NCBI GenBank assembly: GCA_038087875.1 | Contig: CM075988.1 | Location: forward strand, 14,572,001 to 14,636,000 | Direction: 5' to 3' | DNA from: Malacoraja senta | Lineage: Eukaryota | DNA length: 64,000 bases | Part shown: positions 1,474 through 63,965 of the stretch, one piece after another | Numbering within the stretch: the first letter of the stretch is position 1 | Layout of the letters: each line of letters begins with the position of its first letter | Program-made: the position numbers and the translations under genes | The notes under the pieces: model-generated | Told to the model about the DNA's origin: nothing | Seen by the model: the letters and a program-made list of their open reading frames with translations, nothing else | Databases searched by the model: none

Positions 1474-1731
1474 CCACTTAGTCCTTCATGGTAAAGCCTC
1501 TTACGCCCCTCAAAACTAAAACACTCTTTTGAAATGGACATTTTGCTCAAGACACAAGATTAAAAAAATACCATTACTGCCACCGAAACCAATTAACAGA
1601 ATGGTTAACATGAGCATTACCAACCTCAGAACTATGTAATGTTCAGCATCATCAACCATTCCCAAAAGCTGATATTACATTGTCTTTAATCTGGCAAGCA
1701 CCTTTATTAACGAGAGAAAGAATAGGCGGCA

Positions 1732-1873
1732 TTTAGGGTTGGAACCGTTCTTCAATTGAATTGACACAAAACTTCACTTATTCCTTTTCTCCAGAGACGC
1801 TGCCTGACCCGCAGTGATTCAAGCATTTTGTGTCTATCTTCGGTATGAGCCAGCATCTGCAGTTCATTCCTAC
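1732..1873 (+). mobile_element. Degraded copy of Penelope-like pLTR/hammerhead-bearing repeat
   Basis: ccttttctccagagacgctgcctgacccgc...cattttgtgtctatcttcgg...cagcatctgcagttc is the shared family body. The ribozyme core is decayed. Confidence 0.55.
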
Positions 1874-2461
1874 ATCTTTATTAATTGACGGCTGTACAAC
1901 AACTGCACAATCCAGGGCCCATCAGGACACTTGGACTTCAAGGTACTTGAATGAGTAGAGGGATGTGGTAATACGCAAGTGGGATTAGGATGGATAAAAA
2001 TGATAATCAGCAAAGACATATTGGACCAAGGGACCAGTTTCAATGCTGTACAACTTTACGACTATGTTCTCTCACGGTATCTGAAATATACAAACCTTGC
2101 ATTCAACACCATTACTTTTTCCTTACAAAAACAGCCTGAAAAGCACCTCAGATGAGGCCAATTAAAAATCAAGAATAGAGTTCTTTGTTCATTTAATTTA
2201 AAAAAACAAAATGGCAAGTTTTACCCTTTCCTATCATTCTGTATAATGTTAAAAATAGAAATCAACCAATACTTTCTTTGTCATGGACCTAGCTCATTTT
2301 ACATAAAGTTCCCGTTGACCAACTAACTTATTTTATTCCCCATTATTCCCCATCTATTTATGCCTCAATACAATGTTTTGTTCTCATAGTCCGCCATTAA
2401 CTGGAGGAGAATTACAACTAATTATTTCAACTGCTGGACATCTCCCACTACTGAAGAAATA

Positions 2462-14619: not shown

Positions 14620-16339
14620 TAGGATTGTCATTTACAACTGGGATAGGTCATATTGAATACAAACTTAAATGGGGTTAGTTATATAAGCAGTGACATGTGT
14701 CAAAATAGTTCTTTTCAATAAATAATTATCACCTCTATTGTCAAGCATTTGTCAGATTTGGGGCTGGTTTTGAATGAAAATTTCGAAAGATATTAATAAA
14801 CCAAATGAAGCCACCCACCATTTCCTGCTATTGGCATTTTTTTTCAATGATATTTTCACAGGTTTGCATCTATTACAACAGTTACCTGTGCAAAAATCCT
14901 AACATAAGCAGAAACCATAGCTTACTTGATATGACAACTATAATGGCAGGTTTACTCCAAGTGAGAGCTGCAGTGCCAGAGTACACTGGGCAGCAAGTAC
15001 TATATTAGCCATTTAGGCCAGGAATCTAAGACATATTCCTACCCTTAGAACCTAAGCATGTCATTTCAAATACGGAAATTGCCAGGGTATCAGCAAATCC
15101 TCCATCATGATTAATGTTAAGTTTAACATCTCATTGTTCGACTACAGCGAAATCTGTGATCTTTCAATGAATAAAATGCAGTTTTGTTATCATGATGACT
15201 TTGTACGTTTTTTAAATATGGAAAATAGAGTTAATTAACTAAGTGCATCGACACTGTGCGGAGAAGTACATTAGTTACTCATGTCTGACATGCGGAAAGG
15301 GAGGCTATAAAGCATATTGTCAGTAAGGCCTTCATTCAGCCTTCCCATCTGCTTGCAACTCGTTGTCAATTTACCACATTTATACTTTCCTTCATCAGAG
15401 AAAAAAAAATCCTTGTAAACGATTCACTTGCAGTAGTGTTCTCATGTTTGAAAATTATTGTTGGTAGGAGTGCACGTATTTGGAGACAGTGATGAGGGAA
15501 TCCTCAACTTACATACTAGTTTTTCTTTGGATCTTTTACACCTGCTTTGAAGAAGACAGGAGTGTGAGATCATTCACCCTAGCCGTGACTCACCTTGCCA
15601 TCTGTCAAAAAAGCCATCCACTGGCTTGTCAACAGCAACAAAAATGGTTTAATTGCTGACAAACTTTATTAGGCACAATAGAATGACACCTGAGATGTCC
15701 CTCGGGTTATCTAACATTTTCCCTGAGGCTGCAATTCAATGAGACTACATAGCAAAGAGCCAGCACTATTGATCCTCGAGAATGTTGCTTATCGATGTTA
15801 CCAAGCCAAAAATCACCTGGCACAGAAACAATTGTTGTGTTCACATGCAACTGAAATATCCTGAGCAAGAGTGCACTACCAGTGATCATTCACGCATTAA
15901 CCCTTGGCACCCAGCAAGAAACAAACTGCTGGAGGAACTCAACAGGTCAAAAAGCATCTCTGGAGGCAAAGAGATGGTCAACATTTGGGGTCGAGACTCT
16001 GCTTCAGACAAATTTCCCTCCCATCTACCGGCCCCTGCCTTGCTCCTCCCTGTCACCTCTTTATATTGATTATCTTCCCTTTTCACTCTCTGTCTTGTTA
16101 CATTATCTTGAACCAAAACACCAACCACTCCTTTGCCTTCACATGTCTTCCACCATTTTGTTGTTTGCTGCAGATTTCAACATCTGCAGTCTCTGGTGTC
16201 ATACCTGTACACAGCTAGAATTGGGATTTCCTTGGAGCTACTCTAATTTGCAAAAGTCAAAATCTCTGCAGTGTCTCCAGCTCTCGGTGGGATATCTGTC
16301 CCCTATTGGTATCCCCTGTGGTGATATCAAGGCAAACGT

Positions 16340-19942: not shown

Positions 19943-19957
19943 GACGTCAAACAAGAT

Positions 19958-20045
19958 GGACACAAAAAGCTGGAGTAACTCAAAGGGTCAGACTGCATCT
20001 CTGGAGAAAAGGAATAGGTGACGTTTCGGGTCGAGACCCTTCAGG
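19958..20045 (-). mobile_element. Penelope-like pLTR repeat fragment (hammerhead core partly deleted)
   Basis: gacacaaaaagctggagtaactc...aggtgacgtttcgggtcgagacccttcag; the reverse complement lacks 3 nt of CTGAAGAA. Confidence 0.6.
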
Positions 20046-21263: not shown

Positions 21264-22229
21264 TGCCTAGAAATTCAGCAGCATTAAAGAGTCACATCAG
21301 AAAGCTATACTCTCTCTGAAATTCATTTAATTATGCCAAGGTGGAATGCACTCACAACCATGGACAAATTTCTAGACAAATATCTGTCCAGAATTGTGGT
21401 GCTCAGAATTGTCTGCAGTCAGCTAGCTGAAAACAAACCAGTGATTTATAAACTTCCAGCATGATCTCCCTGCGTTTGCACCCTGTGCCTTCATTTATTA
21501 ACCCAAGTAACCCATAAATGTTTTAGCTAGCATTTGCCTTAAGCATTGTGAATGTCTCTCTCCTCAGCTTTGTCATGCTATTTGTAGTATAGCTCCTCTG
21601 TCATATCACATTTCATCATTGTAAACCTCTTCCTATTGAATGCTAACTGCCTTGCATCTGCCCTGTGCACCATCGTGAATCTAAAATTACCCTCTAGATT
21701 GCCAAATTCTATACGGTTTACAAGCTTTCTTATGCACATTTGAGAAATGGATTTGGACATAAAAAAATATGCAGAGTAGTGTTATAATGGCAATTGGTTT
21801 AGAATATAAAAATACAGATGCAATGCTGAATCTATCTAGAACCAAATGACTATATTGTGTCCAACTTTGGGATTTACATCATAAAGGCACAGAATGGGGT
21901 ATAGGATGGGATATAGTGTAGCATGGGATATTTGTTTTGATAATTTAATTTGGAAGAGCATTTGAAACTTTTATAGTTACGCAAGAGAAATGAAAATGAC
22001 CAAGAAGGGAGCAAAGTAGATAGACATACTATTTACAGTGGTTGAGGAACTAGAATAATGGGATGCAGATGTAAACTGTAAAATGTATTTGTTTAAACAA
22101 TGAGGGCAGAAACCCTTTAACTAAAGTTCTGAGACTGTAAAAGTTAAATCCCAAGCAACCGTTTGAAGCAGTGAGCACATTAACACTTAGAGGTAGGTTT
22201 GATGGATATCTGACAAAGACAGAATTAAG

Positions 22230-22360
22230 TGTAAGAAGGATCTGCAGATGCTGGTTTAAACCGAAGATAGACACAAAAAGCTGGAGTAACTCAGCAGTAC
22301 AGGCAGCATCATTGGAGAGAAGGAATGGGTGATGTTTCGGGTCGAGAACCTTCTTCAGAC
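22230..22360 (-). mobile_element. Penelope-like pLTR repeat with hammerhead-like core (22331-22358)
   Basis: Reverse complement CTGAAGA-A-GGTT-CTCG-ACCC-GAAAC-ATC followed by the family body. Confidence 0.6.
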
Positions 22361-23836
22361 AGAATTAAAGCAGGTATCACGGAATGATTAAAGGGGCTTT
22401 TAGATAGGCACAAGGATATGCAGAAAGTAGGGATATGGATCTCCTGCAGGCAGAGGAGATTAGTTTAACTTGGCATCATGCTCGGCACAGACATTGTAGA
22501 CTGAAGGGCTTGCTGCTGTGCTGTACAGTTCTATATTCTATGTTCTTGGAGGTAGGGCAGGAATATAGGTTGAGACATCTGCTTGGAACAGATGAACATC
22601 ACTGTGGACTATTTATTTCAGACTGTCTATTTCTGTACATGAATTACCATCTAACTTTATGAAATTCACAACACCTCTCATGGTATTCCTCTTTTCAGTT
22701 ACGTTGCACATACTCTCTTGTAAAAGTCATAATGGCCCCAATATTATTTTCAGGGAAAAGACTACTCGACTTGCTGCTGAGGTGTGAAGAAGCCCATATT
22801 TACTTGTGTGAATCCCCAACCTCAACTTGTGCTTCAAAGTCAACCCAAACCTCAGTGGCAAGGCCTTGTTAACATTAGTGCTCATCATATGGGAGGAGAA
22901 GTCAACATAAGCCCCATCCACTGAACAACCGAAAACAGGAGATAGCTGGACCAGTGTAGCTGGCTGTCAAAACTTTACTGGCTTCTAAATATCTCTGCCA
23001 ATGAAAAAGGATATTCAAATTGTTAAACCAATTAGAATTAACTAAATAATTGTAAACTTGAAAAACAGTACACTTAAATATGTAATAAATACTCATGTAT
23101 TTTAAATAAATTAAAATGAGGTTAGAAAATGTAAACTTGCTGATTGTTAACTTTATCCCCCACAGCTATACCTCTCTGTTCTTATGAAGGCTAGCATGGT
23201 GTCCACACCTGTTTTAACATGACATATATTGTTAGGGCTGATTTCCCAGGGCAATCGTTCTGCATTTGTTGCAAACTTGTTCTCTACCCATCAGTGCACA
23301 GTCCGATTCAGAAATCATTCTGCAAGCAAGTATAACATAAGGACCTCTGCATTCCCGCAGGTATTCCAAAGTCGCCATCCACTACATGAGAAATTATTGG
23401 CTGCCATGCGGAAACGGCTGACAAATTTTGCCCAGTCTGACCTTTGCCAACAAATACACCTCTGCCTAATTGAATTCTCCCTCATAGCAATCTCCTCTTA
23501 TATTGGTTACGATCACAACTGATCTGCCATATTGACTACATCAGTAATCATTGACTTCATCTTTCTACTCACCATTATCCTTTCCTTCCACATCCTCAGC
23601 AATGATGTCCTTCTCCAGCCTTTCCCCAGCATTGACCTTCCAGTTGGTCTTCCCTATCTGCAAAAGATACCTGGCATTGAAGTAAGAGCTTCAGCGTTTA
23701 TGCAGGTATATTTCAGAGGAGAATGTGGATGGGAAGTCCAAGACATAGTCTGCTGTAGGTGATCCTGCATCGATTTGGCCTGCTGTAGCGAAGACAACAA
23801 AAAGGAAGAAAGGAGGGTAGCACAGTGGCTCAACTT

Positions 23837-24268
23837 GGGTAACACAGTGGCACAGGTGGTGGAGCTACTGCCTCACAGTGCCAGAGACTGGGGTCCGATT
23901 CTGGCCTCAGGTGCTGTCTCTATGGATTTGCACATTTTCCCTGTGACCATGTAGGTTTCCTCGAGGTGCTCCAGTTTCCTCCCGCATCCCAAAGACGTGC
24001 AGGCTTTTAGGCTAATTGGCTTCTGAAAATACCTGTAATGTGTAAGGAGTGTGTGCGAAAATGGGATAACATAGAACTAGTGTAAATAGGGTGATCATGG
24101 TCGGTGTGGTCTTGGTAGGTCGAAGGGTCTGAAGAAGAGTTCCAACTCGAAACGTCACCCATCCTTTTTCTTCAGAGAAGCTGCCTAACCCGCTGAGTTA
24201 CTCCAGCACTTTGTATCTATCATCTGGTGGGCCAAAGGCCTGCTTAATGCTATATCATTCAATCAATA
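23837..24268 (+). mobile_element. V-SINE (HE1-like) interrupted near its tail by a pLTR/hammerhead repeat (~24125-24222)
   Basis: tRNA-like head and V-domain ccagtttcctcccgcatcccaaagacgtgc. The tail motif ggtaggtcgaaggg / ggtgggccaaaggcc appears on both sides of the insertion. Confidence 0.75.
24125..24160 (+). ncRNA. Minimal type-I hammerhead ribozyme motif (predicted)
   Basis: GGGT-CTGAAGA-A-GAGT(TCCA)ACTC-GAAA-CG-TC-ACCC: 4-bp stem I, intact CUGANGA/GAAA core, 4-bp stem II, palindromic ACGT stem III and GUC cleavage triplet. Confidence 0.6.
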
Positions 24269-24920: not shown

Positions 24921-25228
24921 AATGGTTGGCTGCCAGTGACTGGTGGTATTCCGCAGGGGGTCGATGTTGGTATCGACTTCTGCTTCACATGGTATATCAA
25001 TGATTTGGAAGATGGAATTGAGGGCTTTGTGGCCAAGGTTGCAGATAATACGAAGATCGGATAGCATAGATGAAGCAGGGAGTCTACAGAAGGACTTGGA
25101 CAGGTTGGGAGAGTGGGCAAAGAAGTGGCATATGCAATGCAGCATAGCAAAGTATGCGGTCATGCATAATGCATAGTATGAATAAAGGCATAGATGATTT
25201 TCTAAATGGGGAGTGGATTCTGAAATCA
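24921..25228 (+). mobile_element. Old degraded CR1 RT fragment
   Basis: gtgactggtggtattccgcaggggg (G.PQG motif), gcagataatacgaagatcgg (decayed ADDTK), and LQKDLDRLGEWAKKWHMQ. Confidence 0.8.
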
Positions 25229-25278
25229 AAACAACCTGTAGATGAGTTCAACGGGTTGAGCAACGTTTGTAGGTATAA

Positions 25279-28024
25279 ATAGCTATTAATGATTATGATA
25301 TAGTTGGGATCACGGAGACATGGCTCCAGGGTGACCAAGGCTGGGAGCTGAACATCCAGGGATATTCAATATTCAGGAGGGATAGAGAGAAAGGAAAAGG
25401 AGGTGGGGTAGCGTTGCTGGTTAGAGAGGAGATTAACGCAGTGGAAAGGAAGGACATTAGCTTGGAGGATGTGGAATCGGTATGGGTAGAGCTGCGAAAC
25501 ACTAAGGGGCAGAAAACGCTGGTGGCTGTTGTGTACAGGCCACCTAGCAGTAGTAGTGAAGTTGGGGATGGCATCAAACAGGAAATTAGAAATGCGTGCA
25601 ACAAAGGCAAAACGGTTATAATGGGTGACTTCAATCTACATATAGATTGGGTGAATCAAATTGGCAGGGGTGCTGAGGAAGAGGATTTCTTGGAATGTAT
25701 GCGAGATAGTTATCTAAACCAACATGTAGAGGAACCAACGAGAGAGCAGGCTATTCTAGACTGGGTATTGAGTAATGAGGAAGGGTTAGTTAGCAGTCTT
25801 GTTGTGCGTGCCCCCTTGGGCAAGAGTGACCATAATATGGTTGAGTTCTTCATTAGGATGGAGAGTGACATTGTTAATTCAGAAACAACGGTTCTGAACT
25901 TAAAGAAAGGTAACTTTGAGGGTATGATACGTGAATTGGCCAAGATTGACTGGCAATTAGTTCTAAAAGGGTTGACGGTGGATATGCAATGGAAGACATT
26001 TAAAGACTGCATGGATGAACTACAAAAATTGTTCATCCCAGTTTGGCAAAAGAATAAATCAGGGAAGGTAGTGCATCCGTGGATAACAAGGGAAATCAGG
26101 GATAGTATCAAAGCAAAAGATGATGTGTACAAATTAGCCAGAAAAAGCAGCATACCAGAGGACTGGGAGAAATTCAGAGACCAGCAGAGGAGGAAAAAGG
26201 GCTTAATTAGGAAAGGGAAAATAGATTATGAAAGAAAACTGGCAGGGAACATAAAAATGAACTGCAAAAAGTTTTTATAGATATGTGAAGAGAAAGAGAT
26301 TAGTTAAAACAAATGTAGGTCCCTTGCAGTCAGAAACAGGTGAACTGATCATGGGGAACAAGGATATGGCAGACCAATTGAATAACTACTTTGGTTCCGT
26401 CTTCACTAAGGAAGACATAAATAATCTGCCGGAAATAGCAGGGGGCCGCGGGTCAAAGGAGATGGAGGAACTGAGTGAAATCCAGGTTAGTCGGGAAGTG
26501 GTGTTGGGTAAATTGAATGGATTAAAGGCCGATAAATCACCAGGGCCAGATAGGCTGCATCCCAGAGTACTTAAGGAAGTAGCTCCAGAAATAGTGGATG
26601 CATTAGTGATAATTTTTCAAAACTCTTTAGATTCTGGAGTAGTTCCTGAGGATTGGAGGGTAGCAAACGTAACCCCACTTTTTAAGAAGGGAGGGAGAGA
26701 GAAATCGGGGAATTACAGACCAGTTAGTCTAACATCGGTAGTGGGGAAACTGCTAGAGTCAGTTATTAAAGATGGGATAGCAGCACATTTGGAAAGTGGT
26801 GAAATCATTGGACAAAGTCAGCATGGATTTACGAAAGGTAAATCGTGTCTGACGAATCTTATAGAATTTTTCGAGGATGTAACTAGTAGAGTGGATAGGG
26901 GAGAACCAGTGGATGTGTTGTATCTGGACTTTCAGAAGGCTTTCGACAAGGTACCACATAAGAGATTAGTATACAAACTTAAAGCACATGGTATTGGGGG
27001 TTCAGTATTGATGTGGATAGAGAACTGGCTGGCAAACAGGAAACAAAGAGTAGGAGTAAACGGGTCCTTTTCACAATGGCAGGCAGTGACTAGTGGGGTA
27101 CCGCAAGGCTCAGTGCTGGGACCCCAGCTACTTACAATTTATATTAATGAACTGGATGAGGGAATTGAAGGCAACATCTCCAAGTTTGCGGATGACACTA
27201 AGCTGGGGGGCAGTGTTAGCTGGGAGGAGGATGCTAGGAGACTGCAAGGTGACTTGGATAGGTTGGGTGAGTGGGCAAATGTTTGGCAGATGCAGTATAA
27301 TGTGGATAAATGTGAGGTTATCCACTTTGGTGGCAAAAACAGGAAAGCAGACTATTATCTAAATGGTGGCCGATTAGGAAATGGGGAGATGCAGCGAGAC
27401 CTGGGTGTCATGGTACACCAGTCATTGAAAGTAGGCATGCAGGTGCAGCAGGCAGTGAAGAAAGCGAATGGTATGTTAGTTTTCATAGCAAAAGGATTTG
27501 AGTATAGGAGCAGGGAGGTTCTACTGCAGTTGTACAGGGTCTTGGTGAGACCACACCTGGAGTATTGCGTACAGTTTTGGTCTCCAAATCTGAGGAAGGA
27601 CATTATAGCCATAGAGGGAGTGCAGAGAAGGTTCACCAGACTGATTCCTGGGATGTCAGGACTTTCATATGAAGAAAGACTGGATAGACTTGGCTTATAC
27701 TCGCTAGAATTTAGGAGATTGAGAGGGGATCTTATAGAAACGTACAAAATTCTTATGGGGTTGGACAGGCTAGATGCAGGAAGATTGTTCCCGATGTTGG
27801 GGAAGTCCAGGACAAGGGGTCACAGCTTAAGGATAAGGGGGAAATCCTTTAAGACCGAGATGAGAAAAAACGTTTTCACACAGAGAGTGGTGAATCTCTG
27901 GAACTCTCTGCCACAGAGGGTAGTTGAGGCCAGTTCATTGGCTATATTTAAGAGGGAGTTAGATGTGGCCCTTGTGGCTAAAGGGATCAGGGGGTATGGA
28001 GAGAAGGCAGGTACGGGATACTGA
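25279..28024 (+). pseudogene. CR1 ORF2 endonuclease/reverse transcriptase (frames 25279-26280 and 26285-28024; about 914 aa if one A is removed)
   Basis: Removing one A from the A5 run at 26266-26270 restores ...NCKSFYRYVKRKR... and joins the two listed ORFs. The N-terminal endonuclease residues and ORF1 are absent. Confidence 0.9.
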
Positions 28025-28124
28025 GTTGGATGATCAGCCATGATCATATTGAATGGCGGTGCAGGCTCGAAGGGCCGAATGGCCTACTCTTGCACCTATT
28101 TTCTATGTATCTATGTATCTATGT
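25279..28124 (+). mobile_element. Young CR1 LINE, 5'-truncated inside the endonuclease; ORF2 (APE + RT) with a single +1 frameshift at ~26266-26270; 3'UTR ending in (TCTATGTA)n
   Basis: APE motifs GITETW, YRPP, GDFN, LD.VL, SDH. RT motifs NYRPVSLTS, QHGF.KGKSCLTNL, YLDFQKAFDKV, GVPQGSVLGP, FADDTKL. The 8-bp terminal repeat is typical of CR1. Confidence 0.97.
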
Positions 28125-29839
28125 AAATGAATGGCCGATGTTTCTGTTCGAAACCCTGAACCAGGACGGAGAGTGCAGAAGGGAGGTTGCCATTATAAAG
28201 AAGAGAGGGGAAGTGGTGACACAGATTTGCTCAACCCACTGAGTTCCTCCATCCAGCAGATTGTTGGGTACTCCAGCTTCTAGCATCGGCAGTCTCTTGT
28301 GCCTCTCTGCCATCACTGTCCTAGAAAAGTGAATATCCTGGGTACATTGCTCCCCAGATATCTCAGGATAGGCGTGTGGATCCTGGAACAATCCAGGACT
28401 GTGCCTTATCTGACAAGTCCACTGAGACTTCGGCACATCTGCTCCAACTCTGCTTTGTTTTGAAGGCCAAGTGGGACCACAGCCATGATTCCCAAGTTAG
28501 CAATAAAAACTACCTCAAACTTATCGCTTACAGAAATTTATTCCATCTTATCAATACTCTCTTCAACTCTACTGAATAATGTAAGATTAATTCTCCTTCA
28601 AATTACCTCCCAAGACTTTGCTCATTATTCATGATAATTAAGAAAGGCATGTCCAAGCTGATTAGATCTGCTTTCGTATCTGCCATCCTCATTGAGTGTT
28701 AATTGTACAAATGTTATTCACTTTCACAGTAGAAGCATCAATTGCGCTTTGCATGTTGATGAACAATATCCAATTGTTCTAAAGTAGGCAAACCATCTAA
28801 ACCAAATTCATATCTTGTGCGCCATGCACTAAAAAATAGCAATGGCACTTTGCAATCAATTTTATAACTCAATTTTTAAGTTTGTCATAAATAAAATAAT
28901 GCACAAAACATGAACCTCAAGGTCATGAAATTCTTAGGTGCTTCAGTGTTTTGGTATTCAGTGATGGTATCATTTTTTTGTGCCTATACAGGGCAACTAT
29001 ATGTTTCACTGTGTAAGTTATATTGAATGCAACTCTGCAATGTGCAAACTAACTTCTGCAAAGATAAGAGCAACTTCTGTTGAGTATCAGTGGCCCATAA
29101 GAAATGTGTGTTATTATTTATCACAGAAGGTAGCGATAATAGACTTTATAGAAAGGAATGATGCACTTCCACCATTTTGCTCTAACAGTCAGCCTTGCAC
29201 TTCTGAAGGAAGTGCAAAATTGGTCCAAAGGTTGAATTACCAACCAGTACCTGTTGATAACTAATATGACCTGGGTTACAGCAGTGTTTGTGGCAATCTA
29301 TTAAACTGCATAACAATATTAGTGAATGTTTATTGACCATCCATCCAATCCTAACATGAATAAATGGAAGCAGTTTTGTTAAATCAGCTAATCAATAAAG
29401 TATCTGTGGCCATGTCTTTATGTGCTGAATCTATTTTTCACTCGCATCAATTTAATATTGAAACTTGTCAATATTAGAATTGCTAACACTTTGGATTTGT
29501 ACATTTTAATTGGTGGTACAGAACTTGGAAAAATAATATTTGAAGCCTGACCTTTTTTTGAGTTGTATATGTACACGTAACAAGTGGCTGTTTGGCTGAT
29601 GAATATGGTACTGACTAGAATTCAAATCCTATTTATACCAATCAGATAAATTGTCTAATTTGTAGCCCACAATGAGAAATATAACCAATATAGATTACAA
29701 GATAAATGCTACAAGGTCAATATCCGGGAAGGTAATTGTACTATTGCCATGCCAGAGACTGTAGATGCTGGAATCTTGAGCAAAGAAAATGTTCTGGGGA
29801 ACTCAGCAGATCAGGCAGCATTTGTGAAGGGGAAATGAA

Positions 29840-30110: not shown

Positions 30111-31584
30111 TGGGCAGTCCATGTTCTGGGAAACAGTGGCAAAAAGGGCAGAGGTTCAGATTATGGCAAGATATCCAAAGGCTTAGGTGTACACCCTAAG
30201 CCGTGAACATCACGTGGACACTGATTTAATATTCTTAGCGCAAGAGGAATATTGGGAGTTCATGGCCTCGAGCAGTTCAAAAGATGACTGATTTGTTTAG
30301 ACTCACATGAGAGCTAGTTCAGCATAGTATGAAGACAATGGCTTTACCAATGCTGGTGTCAACTACAAAGATAGTAGTGGACTGTTATAGAATTTCAAAC
30401 ATGTTGTATGGTGTTGATGTAGTGGAAATGATTGCACAGGTCGAGGAAAATGACATGGTATTTAAATTATTGAGGGAAGATGTGGGAGGACGTGAAGAGT
30501 GATGATCCCATGCATGCTGTTTCCTCAAGCTTGAACTTAGAATGTTTGCTGAGGACACTGTGGCTAAGTTGCAGCAAGGGGAACTGAGAATCATGATGCT
30601 TAAGATGCCTACACTGTAAACCACCAAGACAGGAAGAGGTTTTGTCTTCCTAACTTCAAAAGGACAACAAAAAATAACAGCAAAACACACATCATTGTGG
30701 AGCCAGTATTAGTCATAACATAAGAATGTTGTGAAGGTAGGAAGCTCTGAGGAAAATTTAAGTTAGGGATTGTTATAATTGGTTGGATGATCCTTAGGAA
30801 TATGTTGGAGAGAATTAATTATTGTAATTATTCTTATAGCTAAGGGAATTTTCGGTCGGCATTAAGTTTGGGGTTGTAATTGATGAGTGGAAGTGATTTC
30901 ATACATTATGTATTCATAGTCACGTGAAATAATGGAAAGATTTAGTATGGGATATGAGACTTGTACTTGGTGAAGCCTATTAGAGAAATCCATCATGGGA
31001 TTTGCTTACAGTAGAGTTACATATTGTGGTTGGCTGGAATAGAAAACGGAATGGGTTTATGTTTATCCTGGAACCATAGGATGATTTTGGCTCAAAAGGA
31101 AGCAATTCAGCTCATCATGTGCACACCAACTCTCAACTTATGGAACACATTGGTTCTGTCCACCGAACCACTTCCTTGTAACACTGCAGTTTTTTTCTTC
31201 ACCATTTGCGTAATTACAATAGATGATCTAATTCCATCCCGAAGGCCAAATGAAAACTGCCTCCTCTGTAGATTCCACCAGATTAACCAATCTCAATTGC
31301 ACGTCGCACGAAAGGCTGCCTATGCCACTAGTCGATTTTTTACTGCTAAATTAAGTTTATAGTCATTGATTGTGCAAATATTTAGTTACTTCTAAAAATT
31401 CACATTACGTGCAACCAATTAATGAACAGAACAAGTTATGTAGATTGCCGTTACTTATATGGGTGTGCTTTATCGGCCATTGGTTTTAGTTGAATGTTAG
31501 CTGCCTGCAATAAAAGGATAAGAACTTCTAACCTCCTTAAAAACCGAAACAAAAAAATCTATCCAAAGTTTAAAAACTAGAGTG

Positions 31585-31865
31585 TGTAGGAAGGAACTGC
31601 AGATGCTGGTTGATACCTATGATAGACACAAAACGCTGGAGTAACTCAGCGGGTCAGGCAGTGTCTCTGGAGAAAACGAACATGTGATGTTTCTGGTTGG
31701 AACCCTTCTTCAAACGAAAGGATAGAGAAGGCCAGAACAAAAGAAGGCCAGCAGTAGATGACCTCAGGAAAGGTGGAGTTCATAATGGTCCATTGTTGGC
31801 TGGGGAAGGTGTACTAAAGACAGGGATACAAGGATGCGAACAGTGGATTTAGAAGGACAACGAGG
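31585..31865 (-). mobile_element. Penelope-like pLTR repeat (longer copy, degraded core)
   Basis: aggaactgcagatgctgg...gacacaaaacgctggagtaactcagcgggtcaggc...gatgtttctggttggaacccttcttc. The extension aatggtccattgttgg is shared with 55970-56230. Confidence 0.6.
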
Positions 31866-34890: not shown

Positions 34891-35928
34891 TCCTTTCAAA
34901 ATACTATCTAACACACATCTGCAGTAGTTTGAGAGAATTTTCAAGAGAAGCAAGAAAACACTTCTTAGCAACGTACATGGCAGGGTATACGTTGTCACAA
35001 ACGCAGAAGTATATATTGAGGTATTTAATTCTTAAATTTAGCTCTAATTAAAATAGAACAAGAGTAAATAAAAAAAATCAAAGAAATCACAACCACTGGA
35101 AATCTGAAATAAAAGTTAAAAGTAGCAGAAACGTTGAACAAGTCAGGCAATATCTGTGAAAGAGAAAATGTGTCTGATGAGTGTCTTTGACCTGAAACAG
35201 TCGCATTGTTTCTCTCTCCACAGATGCTGCCTGCCCCGCTGAGCATTTCTTGAATTTTGTAGGTCATCCCTGGGTAACAAACGCATTCCGTTTCTACAAA
35301 TGGCCATAAGTTGATTTCCACATTATAGTTAAGAATTGCATCAAAGGCAATCAGTCTGACAAGGAACAATTTAACAACAAAAGTGTGGAGAGAGAGGAAA
35401 CTAGTTCTGCCATTTGCAGGAATGAATGTATGTACATACATAGAACTTATTAACGAACGTAATAATATTATGGAAGCTTCTTGTAATAAAGGGATGTCCA
35501 TAAATATTTTTTTTACCGGTGTTGGCCAGTATTTAAGAATAAACAAATCATGGAGAGAATGCAAATTTAGCTCTAGAAAAATACAGTACAAGATCTTTTA
35601 AAAATGTGCCTGTTAGGGAGTTCCAACATGCCTTACACATCAGTATTTTGTGCTCATATACTCTCCTCAAACTACAGCAGTAGCTTCAAGCACAGCAGGA
35701 AATAAAGTCATTCATCTATGCATTATTGCAATATGTTGAGCATTTTACAATATGAAATACAGTGTAATCTCATCACTGAGACCATACTGTATTTCTTATT
35801 TCTTTTAATGCATTTTAATGGCTTATAAAAAGTCACATTAAAAATAGACAGTGAGATATGCAGTGAGATAAAAAGGAAGTGTCTCCGCCTCTTCCCTTCT
35901 CTTCCTGCCCCCCCACCCCCACATCAGT

Positions 35929-35956
35929 CTGAAGAAGGGTCTCGACCCGAAACGTC
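35929..35956 (+). ncRNA. Minimal hammerhead ribozyme core (predicted) within pLTR repeat 35885-36022
   Basis: CTGAAGA-A-GGGT(CTCG)ACCC-GAAA-CG-TC. Core and stem II are intact; cis stem I is weak (agt/gcc). Confidence 0.5.
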
Positions 35957-36239
35957 GCCTATTTCCTTCGCTCCACAGATGCTGCCTCACCTGCTGAGTT
36001 TCTCCAACATTTTTGTCTACCTCAAAAATAGACAAGCTACTCGAACATGAGACTCATCAGAAAATGTGACATTAGGAATGAGTGCATTTTGGATCCAACA
36101 ATCATTCTGTGTTGTGCTTATGAACAATTTTTTTTGGCCCTGAATGGCAGTAACAAGATGGTAGCTCTACCCATGTGAAAGGCCATCCTGATTAGATTCA
36201 TAGAGCCATACAGCATTAAAAAAACTGGCCCTCCAAATG

Positions 36240-39629: not shown

Positions 39630-42345
39630 CTGCTAATATACCTTCAGTCAGGGGACATGCACCAAGTTCGGACTTCAGCACAAAACCTTGGATGATTTAA
39701 TTCACTATCTGCTGGAAGAAACAAGCCATGATCTCTTACCCTCAGCATTTTCTCTCCTTATTTATGATTTACTTTGATTTATTTGCTCAGGAATACAAAC
39801 AGCAATCACAAAGATTGCATTTACTGTCAATCCCTAGTTGCTCTTGCACTGAATTATATGAGATCTAGATAGGTCCGAACATCTATCCAGATTCCAATTC
39901 CAGATTTTACTTTAATTAAAATTCTTCATTCACCAAACAGTGTAGGCTGAAGAAGGGTCCCAACCTGAATGTTTCCTATCCATGTCCTCCAGAGTTACTG
40001 CCTGACCTGTTGAGCTACTCTAGTGCTTTGTGTTCTGTGTAAGATTCAAGCACCTGCAGTTCCTTGTGTTCATACAGTCCAGACTAATCTTGCAACCAAC
40101 AATCGTGGTATTACTTTCTCAAAGTGCTTGTCTTTATTTGCTTGGTGTCCAGCTTCTTGTGTTGACGGAGCTGCAAGTAAAGACAATGCCATCATTATCC
40201 TGGCATGTGTCCTGTAGATGGTGTAAATGGGGTCAGGAGATGAGTCTTTGGTCACATAGTAACCAGCCTATGTCTGTACTTATAGCCCAAAGATGTATGC
40301 AGCTGATCAATCTAGTTGTCAGCAACCCCCCCCCACCCTCCCCCTCCCCCCACCACCCTGCATGTTGATAGTGGGCAACTCAACGGTGCAGGACAATGGA
40401 CAACAATGTCCTGATCTCGGAGTTCAACTGCACTTATGCAGCCAGTATAAGTTACTGACCAATTAATTCTGTAATAACAATGAGAGTCGTTTGTCTTACA
40501 ATCCAACCATTGCTTCAGATAAATATAATATCTGCAAAATATCTAATAATAATCAAAAAAGAAACACTTCATCATTGAATTATGGCCTATTTATCATTGC
40601 TGAACTTGGTCCACTTTGAATCTTCTTGCTTGTTGTAACTTGTAGTTTCAATTTAAATTCAGATGATGGAACTATTAGCCTGATATCGACATTTCCATCA
40701 TGGCACCTTGAAGATACTGGTAGTGAACAAATTTTTCAGGGAAAAGGGAGAAGACAGAAAAATATTAATTTAACAAAATAATAAAACCTAATGTGGGCAA
40801 TTCAAATCTAAAATATTATGGATACTGGCAGTTTGAAAATAAACAGTAAATGCAAGAAATCCTCAGCAAATCAGACAACATCCATGGAGTGAGAAACAGT
40901 TACTATTCCACAAGAAGACCGTTTAATCAGAACTGTTCAAATGAAAGGTCAGCGTCCGGAAACGTGAAGTCTATTTTCCTCTGTAAAGATACCACCTGAA
41001 CTGGTGAGAAATAAATTTTGGTTTTGCCTTTATTTTATGAAATGACTAAACTCATATTTTTCATGTCTAAATTAAATAGGAGATGGTGAATTGTAAGCTT
41101 GCTCTGCAGATCATTCAAGCTTTAAAGTTTAACAGGAACAATAATTGCACATTTTATTCGGAAGATTCCTCAAGATAGGATTCAACGGCATTTACTAAAA
41201 CAGTCTGAATTCGTCATCTCCTGTCCACATTTTCCATTTATGAAATTCAATATTGCTCTCTGCCGCACTTTCGGGAAGCTGATTATACACATTCTGGGTT
41301 AGGTATTGTACACAAATGTGCAAACAATGCTTATCCAAACAGATACTTTACCAGTATGTTCACAAAGTATTTATTCTAAGGATTCATTTGATTTATCTTC
41401 TTTCTTTGTTTCTATTTCTGATTTTAAAAAGTTTGTAAAACAACACCTAAAACATAATAACTAAGAGCTGGTTCTAACCAATTGTGATAGTTTAATTTAA
41501 TCACTGTGCCATCCTTTAATTCCAGCAATTTATTGCATTGCATAATGATCCCCTGTCTATCGGCTAATTATCCTATCATTGTCAGAATAAGAAAGCCCCT
41601 AATTATTTACCTGGACTATTTAAATAGAGGGTTATAATTAATTATCGAAATTCAAATAAAGGAGATAATTAGTTAACTATCAGCAGGTATTAAAATTTCC
41701 TTCCGCTAACTTAAACTGAATAGCTCCGTTTAGCAAAAGGTGGTTATTGTGATAAAACATCACTGTTTCCCATTTGACCTGATCAACTGGACTATTTTGA
41801 AATCTGCACAGAAATGGCTGCACTCAACTTAGATATCCCTACTTCAATGTAGAATTCTGCCACATTTTAAAAAATGGCATCTGCTGATCTGCATAATGTA
41901 CATTATAGTGTTACAATCCAGCGTTATAGCATTACAATATTAAGGTTCTGGCATCCATCCAGGCCTATACCTCCAGGTAGACCAGGATTGGGCTACCTCA
42001 AAAGCAGTCTTTCTTTAGGCTTAAAGTAGGTCAGATGTGGTGCAATGAGAATTAACTCCTCTTCTACTTGTTTTAATTACTCCATAACATCGTATGAATT
42101 GGTGCAAATTTAAAATCACTTTTATAGGTTTTTTTTTAGCACATTAATCAACTTTTGTTAAGAAAGGCAACTATTATTACAAATGCATACATTATTGCAT
42201 TAGATTTTTTCATGATGTTATTAAAATATACAATAATTCTATGTAGACCATTTATCAAATGTGAATTGCTTACAGCTTTTTATATTGTCGATCTACCTGA
42301 GAAAATGACTAGCCTGTGGTACTCATGAAGTTAGGTTTCTATTAA

Positions 42346-44690: not shown

Positions 44691-46929
44691 AACTGTTGTA
44701 AGACAAGTGTGCAAAACTGAGAGGAGTGGCCAATTATTAAATCAGGACAAGAGACTGACAGTAATGTAATAAATCCTTTACTACCATGCAAGATACTAAC
44801 CTACCTAAGATTTACCAAGCTTCCAATTCACCCCACTAATCCTGAGTAATGAATATGCTTCAATTGAGCACAGTGGTCCTTTAATCAAGGTTTTTCTGCA
44901 TGAAACATTTTCAGCTGAGTTAGGAAATGTGCCAAGGGCCATGAAATTGGGCTGAAAATGAGACAACATTTGGTGCATTTCCTTAATTTAAAATGTATTG
45001 TTTTTTTGAAGATGCAAAATCACATAGCACTGTTACACAGATATTACTGTACTCTAGGGTACTGCTTCTGCAACATTAATTCCTTCATTCATGATTAAAC
45101 AATTCATATTTTAATGCCAACTGCCTGGATTATCATATTGCCACAGATATCATTAAATGAACATTTAGATAGGGCGGGAGACTGTCGTTGGAATGCTCAT
45201 GAATTCAACACCATTCTGTGTAAGTACAGGGTTTGTTCGTCCTTGACACGGAATTATAAGAACAAGGGTAGACCATATCGCCCCTGAAGTCTTCTCTACC
45301 AGTCAGTGCAGTTACAGTTTATCTGTAACCTAACTAAAATATTTGTCCTCACATTTGATCTTTTCTTAACCAATGTGATTCAAAATTCTTGTGTAGAGGA
45401 ATTCTATTATGAATGCAATTCCTAAAGCATGGTCCATCCATGTGCAGGTCCACTTCAACTGCATATCTGGTTTACATGTTACACCAAGCGCAAGTCAAAC
45501 TGCATCAGAGGCTAAAGGATAAAAGGCAAATTGAATAACATTCCTTCTTCACCCAGTGGGCTGGACAATCAAGAAGAGATGTTTCTTCTGTTATCCAAAA
45601 ACTTAGTAATAAAACAAGTGGTAATAAAGTAATAAAACACTTTTTTTTTAAATTCTCCCTCACCCACCAAGACGTAATGCACAAAGTATCTAACTTACAT
45701 GATCTTGTAACACACAAATAATAATGTTATGCAAACCAACTTTCTTGGAGGGCCATATTAACTCGCAGTTTGAAGAAGAGGCCAAACCGAAACATTGCCG
45801 ATCCATGTCCTCCAGAGATGCTACTTGACCTGCTGAGTTCCTCCAGCACTTTGTGTTTTACACAAGATTCCAGCATCTGCCGTTCCTTGCCTCTCTCATA
45901 TTAACTTGCTTGGGTACAACTGAATTACTAATGAGTACATGATCACGTAATTCCGATTCTTTCAGGCTTCCGTGCAATTTCATCCTCAGTTGTATTGTTA
46001 TACAAAAATCAATACATCTAAGTTGGCTTCTACACATGTACTATGAATAGATAGAGGCAGGCTTCTAGTGTTCATTCTTAATTTCTCTGTATAATTAAAT
46101 ATCTCTATTTCATTCTCTCCTGAATGTATTCGCAGATGTGCACAAAATACTGAGTAAACTTTTAAAAAATCCACAAGATTTTACAGAGAATAAAAAATGA
46201 GTTATGTTATTATTCAAAAATTCTAATATCAGGAAGGAAGAGATTTACACCCATAGATACCTGATCCGTGAATCAGAGTGCAATATATTCATATTAGTAA
46301 AGAGCACCATACTGGGATGGGAAGTGAAAGATTAATGATGACAGGGTAAGTAAAATGAATGAAAATATAAATAACATGTTCACACCAGTTTATCAATGGA
46401 GGCTAGATAATGGGGAGCATTTAGAGATTTACAGAGAGGTTTTTAAGACATATGTGCCAAACACAGGCAAGTTCTGGTAGGCAACATACACACCTCGGTC
46501 AACCTGGATAAGTTGTGCCTAAGGGCCTGTGCTATATAAATCTATGATTCTACCTGTGTCCAATATGCACAGGCATTGGCTACTTTATGAAGTTCAAAGG
46601 TCCACATTTTAGGCAACCTCGACAATTACCTTAAGGATCCAAGAAAGAGAAACCATACTGTCCCTGTGGTCTGTACTTGTCAATAAGATCATGGTTGATC
46701 CTACTCAAGCCCACCTTTCTCTGATCTCCTTATCCCAATTCCTTTAGTATCCAAATGTGTTACTTTGTAACTTACCATCCACTGGGATAGAAGATGTCAA
46801 AGATTCTTAATGCTTCGAGTAACAGTTTTTTTTTGTCATCTTAACAACCAAACCTTTATCCTGAAAAGATTCCCCTCATTCCAAACTTTGCAACCAGACA
46901 TAAACATCTCCTCTGCATCTATTTAGAAT

Positions 46930-47468: not shown

Positions 47469-49377
47469 TATAGCATATAAAGAAAAAGGAAGCAAAGTTA
47501 ATAGGATTGAGTATTGCTCTTCGTTCCCAGTACCAATCATGTACAAGGTATGTTGACAGATTGAGGGTGTGTTGAAGGTGTGTCTGAGCCTGTCTGAAGC
47601 CCTCCACTGCCCTCCTTTCCCCACCTCCAGCACACCACTACCACTCACTTATCACATAAACCATGAATGTAAACTGTTAGCAAACTAACTGGGTAAAGCC
47701 AGGGTGGAGATTGGAGAGGAAAAACCCTCAACCTCCCACCAACCAGGCAGAAAATATTTGAGGGATTTATTACTTGGGATACTCCTAATATACTTCTCAA
47801 CATATGAGAGCATGATAAATAGAAGTAAGAATAGATCAATAGACCATGCAGCCTGACCCATTGACTGAGTAACTCAACATGTCAGGTAGCATCTATGGAG
47901 GAAATGGATTAATCCATGTTTGATCCATTCCCTCCACAGATGCTGCCTGACCCATTGAATTACTTCAGCACTTTGTGTTTTGCTCAGGATTCCAGCATCT
48001 GCACTTCCTTGCATCTCCAGGTCTTATGACACCTTGTGCTATCTCTGCCATTCAATAAAATGGTTGATATTTCTTCCTCAACATCTCTTTCCTGCACTAA
48101 CTCCATATTCCTTGATTACCTTAATACCTACATGAAATGAGATTTACTTTGTTAATCTATTACAACCAAGGACAGGAATAGCTTGAAGGGTTTTTTCAGA
48201 TGAACCAAGACAGGTGACTGTAAATGTTACACCATGAAGCAATCTCATGCATCTCACTGAGCTGAATGTTACTTTCTTCTTTTACTTGCCATGGTTTGAA
48301 GAAAGTGTTTGTCATAATGTTGATGTTATTTGGCTTTTCTTCTTGGGACAAGTATTTTTCATCCATTGATTTTAATTAGCCTGGAGAATGATGGGGGTTG
48401 GGGATAAGGTTTCTGAGAAAATAAATTTCTTTGAAATCAGGCTCAGTGGGAAATGTTGAGGAATCACAAATATTGTGAATATTACTCAAATTCCTATGTA
48501 GGTTGTCCAGGGGATAGTTGACCTTTGGAGATCTCTCTGCAAGAGGACTGTGTACGATCAGTCATTCTGTACAATCAAGGCAGAGTTCAATGGGTTTTTG
48601 GATGTTAAGGGAAGCAGGGATATAGTTAGAGCAGCAAATTGGCACTGAGATGAAATATCAGCAATAATTGTATTGAAAGGTGACTTCAAAGCTGGAATGA
48701 CCTTCCTTAAATCAGGCAACCATACTGCGTGCAGCATTTCAAATGAGTTCTTACTAAAGGCCTGCATAATCTTATTACATTTCCTCTTGGTTGTACTCCA
48801 AATCCCCATGCATTGGTTTAGTTTATCATTATTGTCACTGGTATCAAGACACAGTGAAAAGCTTGTTCTGCATGCTATCCATTTTAGACATGAATACATT
48901 AGGTCATCTTCTAGAACAGCACAGAGAGAATCACTATGTTCGGTGCCATCTTGCAACATCCAAGTCTCAAATCACTGAGTTAGTCCAGCCCTTGGTGTTC
49001 CATGCAAGATTCCAGTTTCTGCAGTTCCTTGTGTCTCCACGGATATGTGTTATCTCGTCTCACAGCAGTTGGTTGATAGTCATGTCTCAGTCGGCATAAA
49101 TATTAAGATGGATCAATGATGGAGAAGAAAGGCACCATAGCACTCCTGCAATGAATGTCTTAGGTCAATTTCATGCCTGTTGTGCATTGACAAAGTATAA
49201 GCCCTTACAGTTGGAGGACAATAATTCTGCTACACCTGAGACCTGGTGTTGTTATGAGAAGCAGACAGTGCAGCACTTGGTTTGCTCACTGCCCAAGACC
49301 AACCCTGCACAGCTTGGGGTCTTGCTAAGACTGATTTGAGTAATTTGCCTGTCAGTAGAAAGGTCCAGGATTCAGGC

Positions 49378-55896: not shown

Positions 55897-56409
55897 TTTG
55901 ATTGAAGTTTCCAATATATTAAGGGGTTACTTCTGTGAGTTGGGGAACCTATGGAGGTATAGTAATGTGTAGAAAGGAAATGCAGATGCTAATTTATACT
56001 GATGATAGACACAAAGTGCTGAAGTGTCTCAGCGGGTCAGGTAGCATCTCTGGATAAAAATAATGGGTGACTTTTCGGGTCGGGGCCCTGCTCCAAACCG
56101 AAAGTGGAGGGGAGGAAACTGGAGGTATTAAAGTCCAGAACAAAGCAACAGATGACCAATAATGGCCCATTGTTGGTTGGGGAAGAGGTGATAACGGATA
56201 ACAATGGATACAGTAAGATAAGTTGGATGAGGTGCAAGTGAACCTCTGCTTTTCATAAAAGGACTGTCGGGATCCTGGATGGAGTCAAGGGAGGACTGTG
56301 GAATCTGCTCAATTTCAAATGTTGGTAGGTGAAGGGTCAGGCTGCCGTTTGGCAATGCATGAACCTATGTTGTAGGAAGGAAGATGTGTGGATAGAGCAG
56401 AAATGGATG

Positions 56410-56707: not shown

Positions 56708-57604
56708 ATATGCTGGGTGTATGGAGGTCTCGTGCAACAGTGAGATGGAAAGTACCTGACATCACAACCGAGAAGAGATGAAAGGTGCAGTCAGTGGGGA
56801 GATGTCACCAATTGTTTCAGTGTAAAGCTTTTACTTTCTGAAAGTACTGATAGCAGCTGAATGTTTTTAAGAAAAAAAGTGATAACAAAACATCATTTTC
56901 AATTTAGACTCAGTGGTATAAAGTATCCAGAACTATTTTGAAGAAATACTGTAACTTCAGTTCTTCAATAACAAGCCTGTTGATTTTATTTACGTTCCCA
57001 TTATTTAATTTGAAATTTATTTTTATATAATTTAATATCATTAGAGTTTTTAATCAGTAACTGAGCATCTTAACTATCAGAATTAGGGAATCATCTGGAG
57101 CAGAACAGCATGAGAACTGCACATAATTCCGATCTGTGCAATGAAACACAGAGTTACAGTGGCACTCAATGTGATTTTCTAATGTCACATTTCGATAAAT
57201 ATTGAGAATAACTTTAAAAGAATTTACTTAATTTCACTTAATTCAGAAAGTATCCACTAATGCTTGTGGAGTTCTTGTTTTTTAACCCGTGTACTCAATC
57301 GGACAATCAAACAGATTTGTGAACAAGGGTGAAATATTCTTTGTAAAAAAACAGGGAACTGCAGATGCTGGTTAATACGGAAAAAGACACAAAGTGCAGG
57401 AGTAACTCAGCTTGTCAGACCGCATCTTTGGTGAACTTAGTTAGGTGATGTTTTTGGTCGAGACCCTTCTTCAGACTGGTTCTCCTGAAGCTGCTTGCTC
57501 CTTGCCTGAAACACAATCTCACAGTCAACTATCCTTCTAGTTTGTCTTTTTTTTTTTGTGTCTTATGTATCCCTGCTCACGTAACTATATATATATTTTC
57601 TTAA

Positions 57605-62250: not shown

Positions 62251-62322
62251 TGCCTGTTGCATCCAGGAACCTGTTGCTGTGCTTTGTTTGTGAACTCGGA
62301 TTTCAAGTGATGAAAAAACCCC

Positions 62323-62520
62323 ACACAAAGTGCTGGAGGAACTCTGCGGGTCAGGAAGCATTTGTGGAGGGAACGTTTCAGGTCGGGACCCTTCTCTCTG
62401 AGGAAGAGTCGCAACCTGAGTCGGTCCATTCTCTCCGTAGATTCTGCCTGACCTGCTAAGTTCTTCCCGCACTTTGTGTTTTGTTCAAGATTCCAACATC
62501 TGCAGTTCTTTGTGTTTCCA
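62323..62520. mobile_element. Inverted (palindromic) pair of Penelope-like pLTR fragments
   Basis: cacaaagtgctggaggaactctgcgggtcagg... and ...ctgcctgacctgctaagttcttcccgcactttgtg form an imperfect ~155-bp hairpin. Confidence 0.65.
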
Positions 62521-63274
62521 GGAAGTGATGACAACCTGTTTGACTGTGAAAGGCTTCATAGCAGATTTTAACTTGAGATGCAGTTCCTTGCATTTTCTAA
62601 GAAAGAGGTTAATGGATAGCGACTAGTACTTAATCCATTGGGCACTGAATTTATTAGTACACCTCAGCTATCATTCTTCATGGGCTAACTAGGTGAATGT
62701 TATGGAATATATCTTCCATTGAACAAATCACTGGAACTCATTGCATGAGTTTTACCCATGGAGATAGAATAGGAGACAATGATTAGATGTAACAGAACCA
62801 ACGAATGTGTACCAGACAGCAATTAAATCAGTGAATAAATTCAAAACAATCATATATTTTGACATCTCTTCAGCTCTTCAAAATATAGTCTATTTCCATT
62901 CTGAAAATTATGAGGGATGATTTTCAACTACAATCATGTTTCATTAAAAAAAATTCAAAAAATGCTAGACCTGGAAATATCAGTAATCAAATAGGATCAA
63001 ATAAATGTCCAGAAAGTGCTCAAGTCAGCTACTTGTTTCTTTGCTACAGTTCAGATTAAACATATTCGAGCTGAAAAGGACATTGAGTATTCATTAAATA
63101 GCAAAATATGTCTGGTTAAAGATCACATCTTCATTATATGACTAGTGTCTGAGAAGATAGTTTCAGTTTGTTGATGTGGCCGTGGAGCCAACTGTAGGCC
63201 TACTCCTGCACCTATTGTCTATTGTTAGAATGGGTAATGCAGGCAGGAACCCATTTCCAGGTTACAAGTGTTTA

Positions 63275-63965
63275 AGAGGGAACTGCACATGCTGGAAAAT
63301 CGAAGGTAGACAAAAGTGTTGGAGAAACTCAGCGGGTGCAGCAGCTTCTTCAGAAGTACCTGGAGCAAAACCTGGAGCAAAACACAATGTGCTGGAGGAA
63401 CCTAACAGGTCAGGCAGCATCTTCGAAGGGAATGACAGAAGAGATTTTGAGTTGGGGCCCTTCTTCAGACTGACTGCAATCGGGAGGAAGAAGCTGGAAG
63501 AGAGAGGTGGGGGTGAAACAAAGCCAGGTAAGTGATAGGGGAAGGTACACAAAAATGCTGGAGAAACTCAGCGGGTGCAGCAGCATCTACTGAGCGAAGG
63601 AAATAGGCAACGTTTCGGGCCGAAACCCTTCTTCAGACTCCATAAGTGATAGGGGAACACTGGTGAGGGTGATTTGATAGCAGACTGGTGAATTAAGTGA
63701 TACAGGCTAGAGTAAAATGGAAACCAAAGGGTGTCGGATAAGGAGAGGTGAAATGTAAAGCAGCAGGAGGGACGTGGACGGGTAGACAAGGGGAAAGGAA
63801 TGCGGGGATGAGAGGGAAATCTGCCCCAAATGAATCCTTTTTTTTTTTTTTTTTTTCCTTCTCCCCCCTTTCCTCCCCCAAATGAATCCTGACCCGATAT
63901 TGCCTAATCCACTGAGTTCCTCCAGCACTTTGTGTTTTGCTCGAGATTCCAGCATCTGCAGTTTC
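63275..63965. mobile_element. Cluster of Penelope-like pLTR fragments (three on -, one on +)
   Basis: Repeated aaaatgctggagaaactcagcgggtgcagcagcatc body at ~63290, 63385 and 63550; inverted body at 63890-63965. Confidence 0.65.
63609..63636 (-). ncRNA. Minimal hammerhead ribozyme core (predicted)
   Basis: Reverse complement CTGAAGA-A-GGGT(TTCG)GCCC-GAAA-CG-TT: intact core, stem II with a UUCG loop, palindromic AACGTT stem III and a GUU triplet. Confidence 0.5.

Follow-up and report, generated by a model that had tools for sequence, protein, structure and literature searches.

A dispersed repeat family in Malacoraja senta with a candidate minimal type-I hammerhead, probably derived from the terminal repeat of a Neptune-like Penelope-like element

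Results

A family of short repeats dispersed through the window

The window, meaning the whole 64,000-nt stretch of Malacoraja senta DNA analysed here, holds a dispersed family of short repeats with a unit of 95-135 bp (Table 1). An iterated profile recovered 29 matches and a longer model of 138 positions recovered 30, which by arithmetic on the 30 matches amounts to ~23 insertion events if the seven paired + arms are counted with their partners. A sequence-only reading of this DNA had proposed a family of roughly 15-20 copies; the family exists, and its size needed correcting upwards. Ten of the 11 positions named in that reading fall within, or at most 2 nt from, a profile match, and the remaining one (35885) lies 42 nt upstream of a match. 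The same reading had copies ending in the hammerhead; in the ribozyme sense the hammerhead is instead the start of the conserved unit, and 70-105 nt follow it. Comparisons among copies made below use an alignment of 21 of the ~30 matches, namely those with some hammerhead region.

The family appears to be very abundant. Contigs at least 80% like 35800-36120 numbered 96,730, 112,731, 10,730 and 2,507 in four public runs; matching contigs are not copy counts, and together with the density in the window they suggest copies on the order of 100,000 or more. A literature search returned no description of the family; Repbase and Dfam lay outside that search and may well hold it.

Several other features share the window. 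A young LINE with endonuclease and RT domains, which we take to be CR1-like, is present at 25279-28133(+) and 38056-39643(-), the two copies sharing 97% identity across 1574 nt; in one LINE cluster the commonest phylum was Chordata. The copy at 25279-28133 seems to split the minus arm of an inverted pair of the repeat family (score 31 versus a shuffle maximum of 28), in which case the LINE would be younger than that family copy. An open frame of 151 codons at 50160-50615(+) had no Pfam match and presumably resembles the C-terminal end of a Rex/L2-type RT. A second dispersed repeat family occupies 60422-62094, 20998-21263 and 47004-47461 and includes a 282-nt inverted pair 1109 nt apart. The (TG)n tract at 8044-14483 (6.4 kb, 3222 copies at 99% match) is unusually long and is possibly an assembly artefact, and a GC-rich stretch at 42600-43160 that gives way to simple repeats of purines and pyrimidines is possibly the promoter or first exon of a host gene.

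Table 1. Positions of repeat-family copies, inverted units and associated features in the window
Coordinates	Strand	Feature	Remarks
1712..1874		Head-to-head pair	One arm with tail
15914..16200		Head-to-head pair	One arm with tail
19954..20042	-	Single copy, tail-less	Truncated within core
22226..22360	-	Single copy with tail	Core intact, stem II pair and palindrome broken; 12-bp duplication of target at hammerhead edge
23836..24262	+	SINE-like host repeat split by focal copy	Five other host copies in window
24113..24126 and 24225-24238	+	Degenerate 14-bp target duplication of focal copy (left and right)	11/14 identical; score 6.5, not significant alone
24127..24226	+	Focal copy, tail-less	Hammerhead core 24129-24156; predicted cleavage after 24156
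24137-24140 with 24145-24148	+	Stem II of focal copy	
28118..28305		Head-to-head pair	Minus arm apparently split by LINE insertion, rest near 25228-25263
31583..31830	-	Single copy with tail and ~110 nt of upstream element sequence	Repeat unit 31583-31715
35927..36022	+	Single copy, tail-less	Intact core; pyrimidine-rich upstream element sequence; reference for contig comparison
37465..37548	-	Single copy	Truncated inside stem II; perfect 11-bp target duplication
39945..40075	+	Single copy with tail	Begins at hammerhead edge
40821..41009		Old head-to-head pair	Full tail on neither arm
45768..45897	+	Single copy with tail	13-bp target duplication (12/13) ending one base before unit
47867..48018		Head-to-head pair without hammerhead	One arm with tail
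55965..56098	-	Single copy with tail	Degenerate core (3/11 core positions changed); 102 nt downstream of endonuclease remnant
56131..56212	-	Non-coding element sequence common to region upstream of 31583-31715 copy (31728-31830)	Score 59 versus shuffle maximum 37
56201..56275	-	25-codon remnant of Penelope-like GIY-YIG endonuclease	Reaches degenerate GIY motif and next cysteine, stops before YIG
57343..57476	-	Single copy with tail	Begins at hammerhead edge; duplication looked for, none found
62322..62521		Head-to-head pair	Tail on + arm only; 12-bp duplication (11/12) around whole unit
63369..63965		Head-to-head unit and upstream element sequence	Host of nested 63547-63638 copy
63547..63638	-	Single copy	Intact core; perfect 15-bp target duplication 63643-63657 and 63529-63543

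The unit opens with a candidate minimal type-I hammerhead

Across the whole window the pattern CTGANGA-N(4-30)-GAAACG occurs exactly at 24129-24154(+), 35929-35954(+) and 63611-63636(-), compared with a mean of 0.06 in shuffled sequence, and none of 100 shuffles reached three. The hammerhead core that had been proposed from the sequence is thus borne out, as are the three versions of stem II (the copy at 24129 has a G-C to A-U double change, and the copy at 63636 a U-G pair and a UUCG loop) and a stem III that consists of the ACGU palindrome and no more. This palindrome (positions 15.2/16.2), which would allow a dimeric stem III, is present in three of the four copies with an intact core. The consensus of the 21 aligned copies has all 11 core positions, an extra base after A9, the G10.1-C11.1 pair and the palindrome; individually, all 11 core positions are intact in only 4 of the 21. 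Stem I is 2-3 bp long in the other intact copies; the focal copy has 4 bp, but owes the excess to the host duplication described below. With both core and palindrome present, the consensus is, as judged from its bases, a putative minimal type-I hammerhead of the kind carried by Penelope-like elements (PLEs).

The covariation of stem II seen by the earlier reading did not survive a comparison across copies. In the 16 of 21 aligned rows that could be used (five were dropped for gaps), one double change was found in 64 cells versus 1.3 expected from neutral decay (P=0.74), and pairing was kept in 46 of the 64 cells versus 49.4 expected; when all 21 rows were scored, 63 of 500 shuffles reached the observed covariation score. 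Nor is the core better kept than the rest of the unit, since differences from the consensus number 25 of 175 in the core and 100 of 605 in the downstream part. Among the variants listed for the contigs of the four runs, those in stem II are one-sided (A35945G, 4-24%; C35948T, 6-11%) and none falls at 35937-35940 or 35946-35947; the core base G12, at a CpG, is changed in 9-14%. Position 17 (35956) is C or T, with T making up 16-62% of depth over the four runs, and the next base is G or A. This C/T and G/A variation at 35956-35957 reflects either subfamilies or CpG decay, and both alternative bases are compatible with the NUH rule.

A search of the window with the Rfam covariance models at E<=10, a check that had been suggested with the hammerhead proposal, gave no hammerhead match and three unrelated weak ones. 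In predicted folding, which takes no account of tertiary contacts, the three best copies would need 19, 35 and 53 kcal/mol over the minimum to adopt the active dimer fold, and stem II forms with a probability of ~0.3 in the focal copy but of nearly 0 in each of the other three copies with an intact core. At 35933-35970 and 63595-63632, stem II is hidden in the minimum fold, where the core's purine run pairs with a run of pyrimidines downstream, a predicted arrangement that could represent an off state relieved by protein binding. On the whole, the dispersed copies look like decaying passengers rather than working ribozymes.

One explanation for these results is that the likeness to a hammerhead is incidental and that an unrelated short repeat was moved by the local LINE machinery. 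The missing covariation, core conservation and Rfam match, the disfavoured active fold and the young RT-encoding LINE copies nearby are all in its favour. However, chance likeness would have to produce a family consensus with 11 core positions, the extra base after A9, G10.1-C11.1 and the palindrome, and the endonuclease remnant, inverted pairs and optional tail described below point to PLEs. Moreover, once inserted, copies made from a single master would not be expected to show covariation, so its absence does not refute a ribozyme in the master element. We therefore regard an incidental motif as hardly credible and consider that the hammerhead is very probably a minimal one derived from a PLE.

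The focal copy lies within a SINE-like repeat

The host repeat that the focal copy splits is presumably V-SINE/HE1-like. An uninterrupted host copy carries the 14-bp motif found duplicated around the focal copy once, and the outer G's of the 4-bp stem I of the focal copy are therefore host-derived. The caution that stem I may partly belong to the host SINE was thus well placed.

Inverted pairs, optional tails and target duplications

Copies of the family are arranged head to head more often than expected. Eight such pairings, involving seven distinct + arms, were found versus 1.9 expected (P(>=7)=0.0036), and none was tail to tail; six opposite-strand joints were present among the contig matches listed for the four runs. 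The 3′ part of the unit is an optional tail of ~35 nt, such that 3′ ends fall at model positions 91-104 (7 of 30 matches) or 130-135 (14 of 30), and several variants of the tail exist in the 21-copy alignment. In seven of the eight pairings the tail is on a single arm, although in one of these the other arm has been cut by the LINE. Target duplications of 11-15 bp with a score of at least 10 accompany 4 of the 30 matches, compared with 0.65% of random sites, and a duplication surrounds the entire inverted unit in one of eight examined. Inverted pairs, a tail on one arm and variable target duplications are PLE hallmarks, and the combination of inverted copies, tail and duplications has been described for PLEs in PMC8557442 and PMC3846280.

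Two further observations concern these arrangements. In all six distinct tailed inverted units (1712, 15914, 28118, 47867, 62322 and 63369), the tail is on the + arm; with five of five informative, one other arm being LINE-cut, this pattern may be due to chance or to an orientation bias. The copy at 63547-63638 is nested in the upstream element sequence of another family copy (63529-63657), which is compatible with chance as well as with a tendency of the element to insert into its own terminal repeat.

A remnant of a Penelope-like endonuclease

A short cysteine-rich peptide encoded at 56192-56284(-) matched a protein, P0002, at E=7.3e-4 in a phmmer search of 1.84 billion proteins. P0002 carries a Pfam GIY-YIG domain (E=6.9e-10); its relatives carry an RT (PF00078) and PF26215, and the two that are named are corals. 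By tblastn, 39 of 56 relatives matched the site of the remnant at E<0.01, and the pattern running from a cysteine linker to YIG is present in 42 of the 56. This CX2-5CxxC linker, common to Neptune and Nematis, is lacking in the remnant itself, which is ~50% identical to its homologues. A profile built from 89 endonuclease segments, cut from 124 proteins, had its sole match in the window at 56201-56275, with 19.6 bits compared with at most 9.7 in 15 shuffles; it was seeded by the remnant's own match, and because it descends from that match, the phmmer search is the only independent test. The second phmmer match, P0001, was set aside as spurious, being a repetitive sulfotransferase-like protein.

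Other searches were less informative. For the remnant, a word-based protein search gave no candidate, Pfam gave just a sub-threshold IBR match, and the ESM Atlas returned nothing above 0.78. Exact-pattern scans of metagenome and viral contigs gave no matches. The best 120 of 150 protein matches included no named homologue from cartilaginous fish; the three named were corals.

The remnant ends 102 nt before the hammerhead of the copy at 55965-56098, on the same strand, an arrangement that by arithmetic has a chance of ~4%. The stretch separating the two recurs upstream of the copy at 31583-31715 (score 59 versus a shuffle maximum of 37), which speaks for the PLE link. A 9-bp repeat, 21 nt upstream, flanks that copy (~2% by chance per copy), so the copy could instead be a separate insertion into an older PLE fragment and not continuous with it. 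The sequence-only reading had found no Penelope RT or GIY-YIG ORF in this DNA. For the endonuclease this must be revised in view of the remnant; for the RT it holds, as neither an RT nor a full ORF of the family is present in the window, and the PLE link in the window consequently rests on one remnant of 25 codons.

Where copies begin

The 5′ ends of copies pile up at the 5′ edge of the ribozyme, 28 nt before the cleavage site. Fourteen of the 30 matches start at model positions 2-4; four of these run on into pyrimidine-rich upstream sequence, one as far as coding sequence, and ten do not. As the profile model itself starts at the hammerhead edge, ends marked by target duplications provide a fairer test, and four of five such ends, including the weakly supported focal case, are at the edge; under uniform truncation, clustering of this kind has P ~6e-5 in what is a small sample. 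In the contigs of the four runs, 11 of the 12 'before' loose ends among the matches listed are at 35923-35927, and all seven 'goes back' joints and all six opposite-strand joints among those listed involve the same positions. Upstream of the edge, the consensus sequence forms a pyrimidine tract whose terminal CAG lies one base before the core. From its sequence, this tract with its CAG resembles a splice acceptor, and in Drosophila virilis Penelope an intron end at helix I is described in PMC4209133. The pile-up may in part reflect poor alignment of a fast-changing pyrimidine tract.

Cleavage was considered as the source of these 5′ ends and found no support, given that none of 12 loose ends is at 35957 and 1 of 12 joints goes there, among the matches listed. 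Sequence from both sides of the cleavage site is present in copies.

Semi-fixed ends of this kind raise the question of whether the 95-135 bp unit is a self-propagating non-autonomous element, transcribed from the hammerhead edge and copied in trans by a PLE protein, much as a SINE is. The ten edge starts that are free of upstream sequence, the duplication-marked ends, the loose ends of the contigs and the several tail variants would all agree with this. However, four of the 14 edge-starting copies extend upstream, a search of the window for tRNA genes gave none, and run-off from autonomous transcripts would yield identical ends. We consider self-propagation unlikely.

A second alternative, also raised by the sequence-only reading, is a non-LTR retrozyme, in which the transcript of a tandem array would be cleaved by every hammerhead it contains and the resulting units closed into small circles before reinsertion. 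According to 10.64898/2026.07.22.740005, PLE terminal repeats gave rise to retrozymes, which are present in the one chondrichthyan sampled there, and head-to-tail joints of a 96-nt unit (36022 to 35927) occur in all four runs analysed here. Such joints are nevertheless few, being found in at least 6, 14, 1 and 1 contigs of 96,730, 112,731, 10,730 and 2,507, respectively, and no tandem array of the unit is among the 27 TRF rows in the window. The copies lying close together at 63369/63547 result from the insertion of one into the other, marked by a perfect 15-bp duplication. Inverted pairs and tails are characteristic of PLEs, and the ribozyme is of the minimal PLE type and not the canonical one with loop-loop contacts by which retrozymes are defined (PMC7229834). 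A retrozyme origin is thus very improbable, and this part of the earlier proposal is not upheld.

Discussion

Comparison with known elements

The best explanation overall is that the family is probably a pseudo-LTR piece of a Neptune-like PLE with the known minimal type-I hammerhead. Both the Penelope origin and the hammerhead type put forward by the sequence-only reading are supported by the endonuclease remnant, the inverted pairs, the optional tail and the target duplications. PLE terminal repeats with a minimal type-I hammerhead are a kind already known, of which this family is a new member.

The PLE hammerheads described in PMC4209133 share with the family a CUGANGA core with one extra base, G10.1-C11.1, a two-base palindrome for stem III, a short stem I, U/C-rich upstream sequence, mostly solitary copies and close opposite-strand pairs; that source gives a consensus for the minimal PLE hammerhead, with which the motif of the family agrees, and reports low dimer activity in vitro. 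Its Neptune example from Acropora digitifera has the same layout, with a 4-bp stem II and a tetraloop. The family differs in its stem I, which is 2-3 bp compared with 3-5 bp, and its copy number would apparently be far above the ~4,000 of coelacanth and ~9,000 of Xenopus given there. No cartilaginous fish is named in the portion of supplement file 2 of PMC4209133 that was available.

With the endonuclease-bearing PLEs Neptune and Nematis, as presented in PMC8557442, the family shares 5′ truncation, an inverted terminal copy and an optional tail of 30-40 bp at one end, and the homologues of the remnant share the cysteine linker before GIY-YIG. In contrast to those elements, the window retains only 25 codons of the endonuclease, the linker is missing, and no sign of (TA)n targeting was apparent. 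Neptune is not distinguishable here from Nematis. Non-LTR retrozymes, too, are short non-coding repeats that carry a type-I hammerhead and are related to PLE ends; their defining features are tandem units, canonical ribozymes and circles (PMC7229834; 10.64898/2026.07.22.740005). Their arrays of 150-450 bp tandem units, canonical ribozymes and circular RNAs contrast with the dispersed monomers and inverted pairs, 95-135 bp unit and minimal ribozyme found here. In one sampled chondrichthyan, retrozyme families average 363 bp, and the supplements of the same work may list a related family (10.64898/2026.07.22.740005).

The closest parallel in mechanism is the Anolis Poseidon element PAc. According to PMC11167929, the RT of PAc initiates internally on its RNA, at either of two positions that delimit the tail. 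The RNA is not cleaved unless the protein is present, and it is mainly the uncleaved form that is used as substrate. In PAc, as in the family, the terminal repeat contains a hammerhead, a tail is delimited by two 3′ ends lying ~100-135 nt downstream, and the RNA is inserted uncleaved (PMC11167929). PAc belongs to another clade, and its ORF starts at stem II whereas the intact cores here are without ATG (PMC11167929).

A model for the copying of the family

Two 3′ ends and an intact cleavage site fit the route used by PAc, with an internal start of reverse transcription on uncleaved RNA, and by analogy we consider it reasonably likely that the family would be copied in this way. Drawing on published PLE biochemistry, the GIY-YIG endonuclease would nick the target, and the RT would then start inside the element RNA at one of two positions, ~95 nt downstream of the hammerhead edge for tail-less copies and ~130 nt for tailed ones. 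The template would be uncleaved RNA. Many cDNAs would stop at the 5′ edge of the hammerhead, perhaps because the template begins there (at a transcription start or splice junction) or because the RT falls off at the pyrimidine tract, a step that we put forward more cautiously; rarer, longer cDNAs would reach the 3′ UTR and the ORF. The ribozyme, if it matters, would act in the master RNA as a dimer or with the help of protein, with the dispersed copies as passengers. We raise more tentatively the possibility that the 95- and 135-bp copies are a discrete PLE product, made by internal initiation at the two boundaries of the tail and by run-off where the hammerhead edge coincides with the 5′ end of the RNA or with a splice junction. 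Solo terminal units, perhaps self-propagating, would in this way be turned out in large numbers.

If this run-off reading is true, the family would be the largest natural set of hammerheads in a vertebrate genome (on the order of 100,000 or more), cleavage would not set the ends of insertions, and the edge of the ribozyme would be a transcript boundary. Minimal hammerheads dispersed in animal genomes by truncated PLEs have been described since 2014; the family adds a very large, sharp-ended sample, with which the question of what fixes the 5′ ends of PLEs becomes testable from one genome and long RNA reads. The uncleaved site and the starts 28 nt upstream of it agree with in vitro work in which insertion needs no cleavage. 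The family gives no evidence that copies cut host transcripts. Head-to-head pairs could, if transcribed, give hairpin RNAs; the pair at 47866-47965 weakly, and falsely, matches a miRNA precursor model in Rfam (E=0.11).
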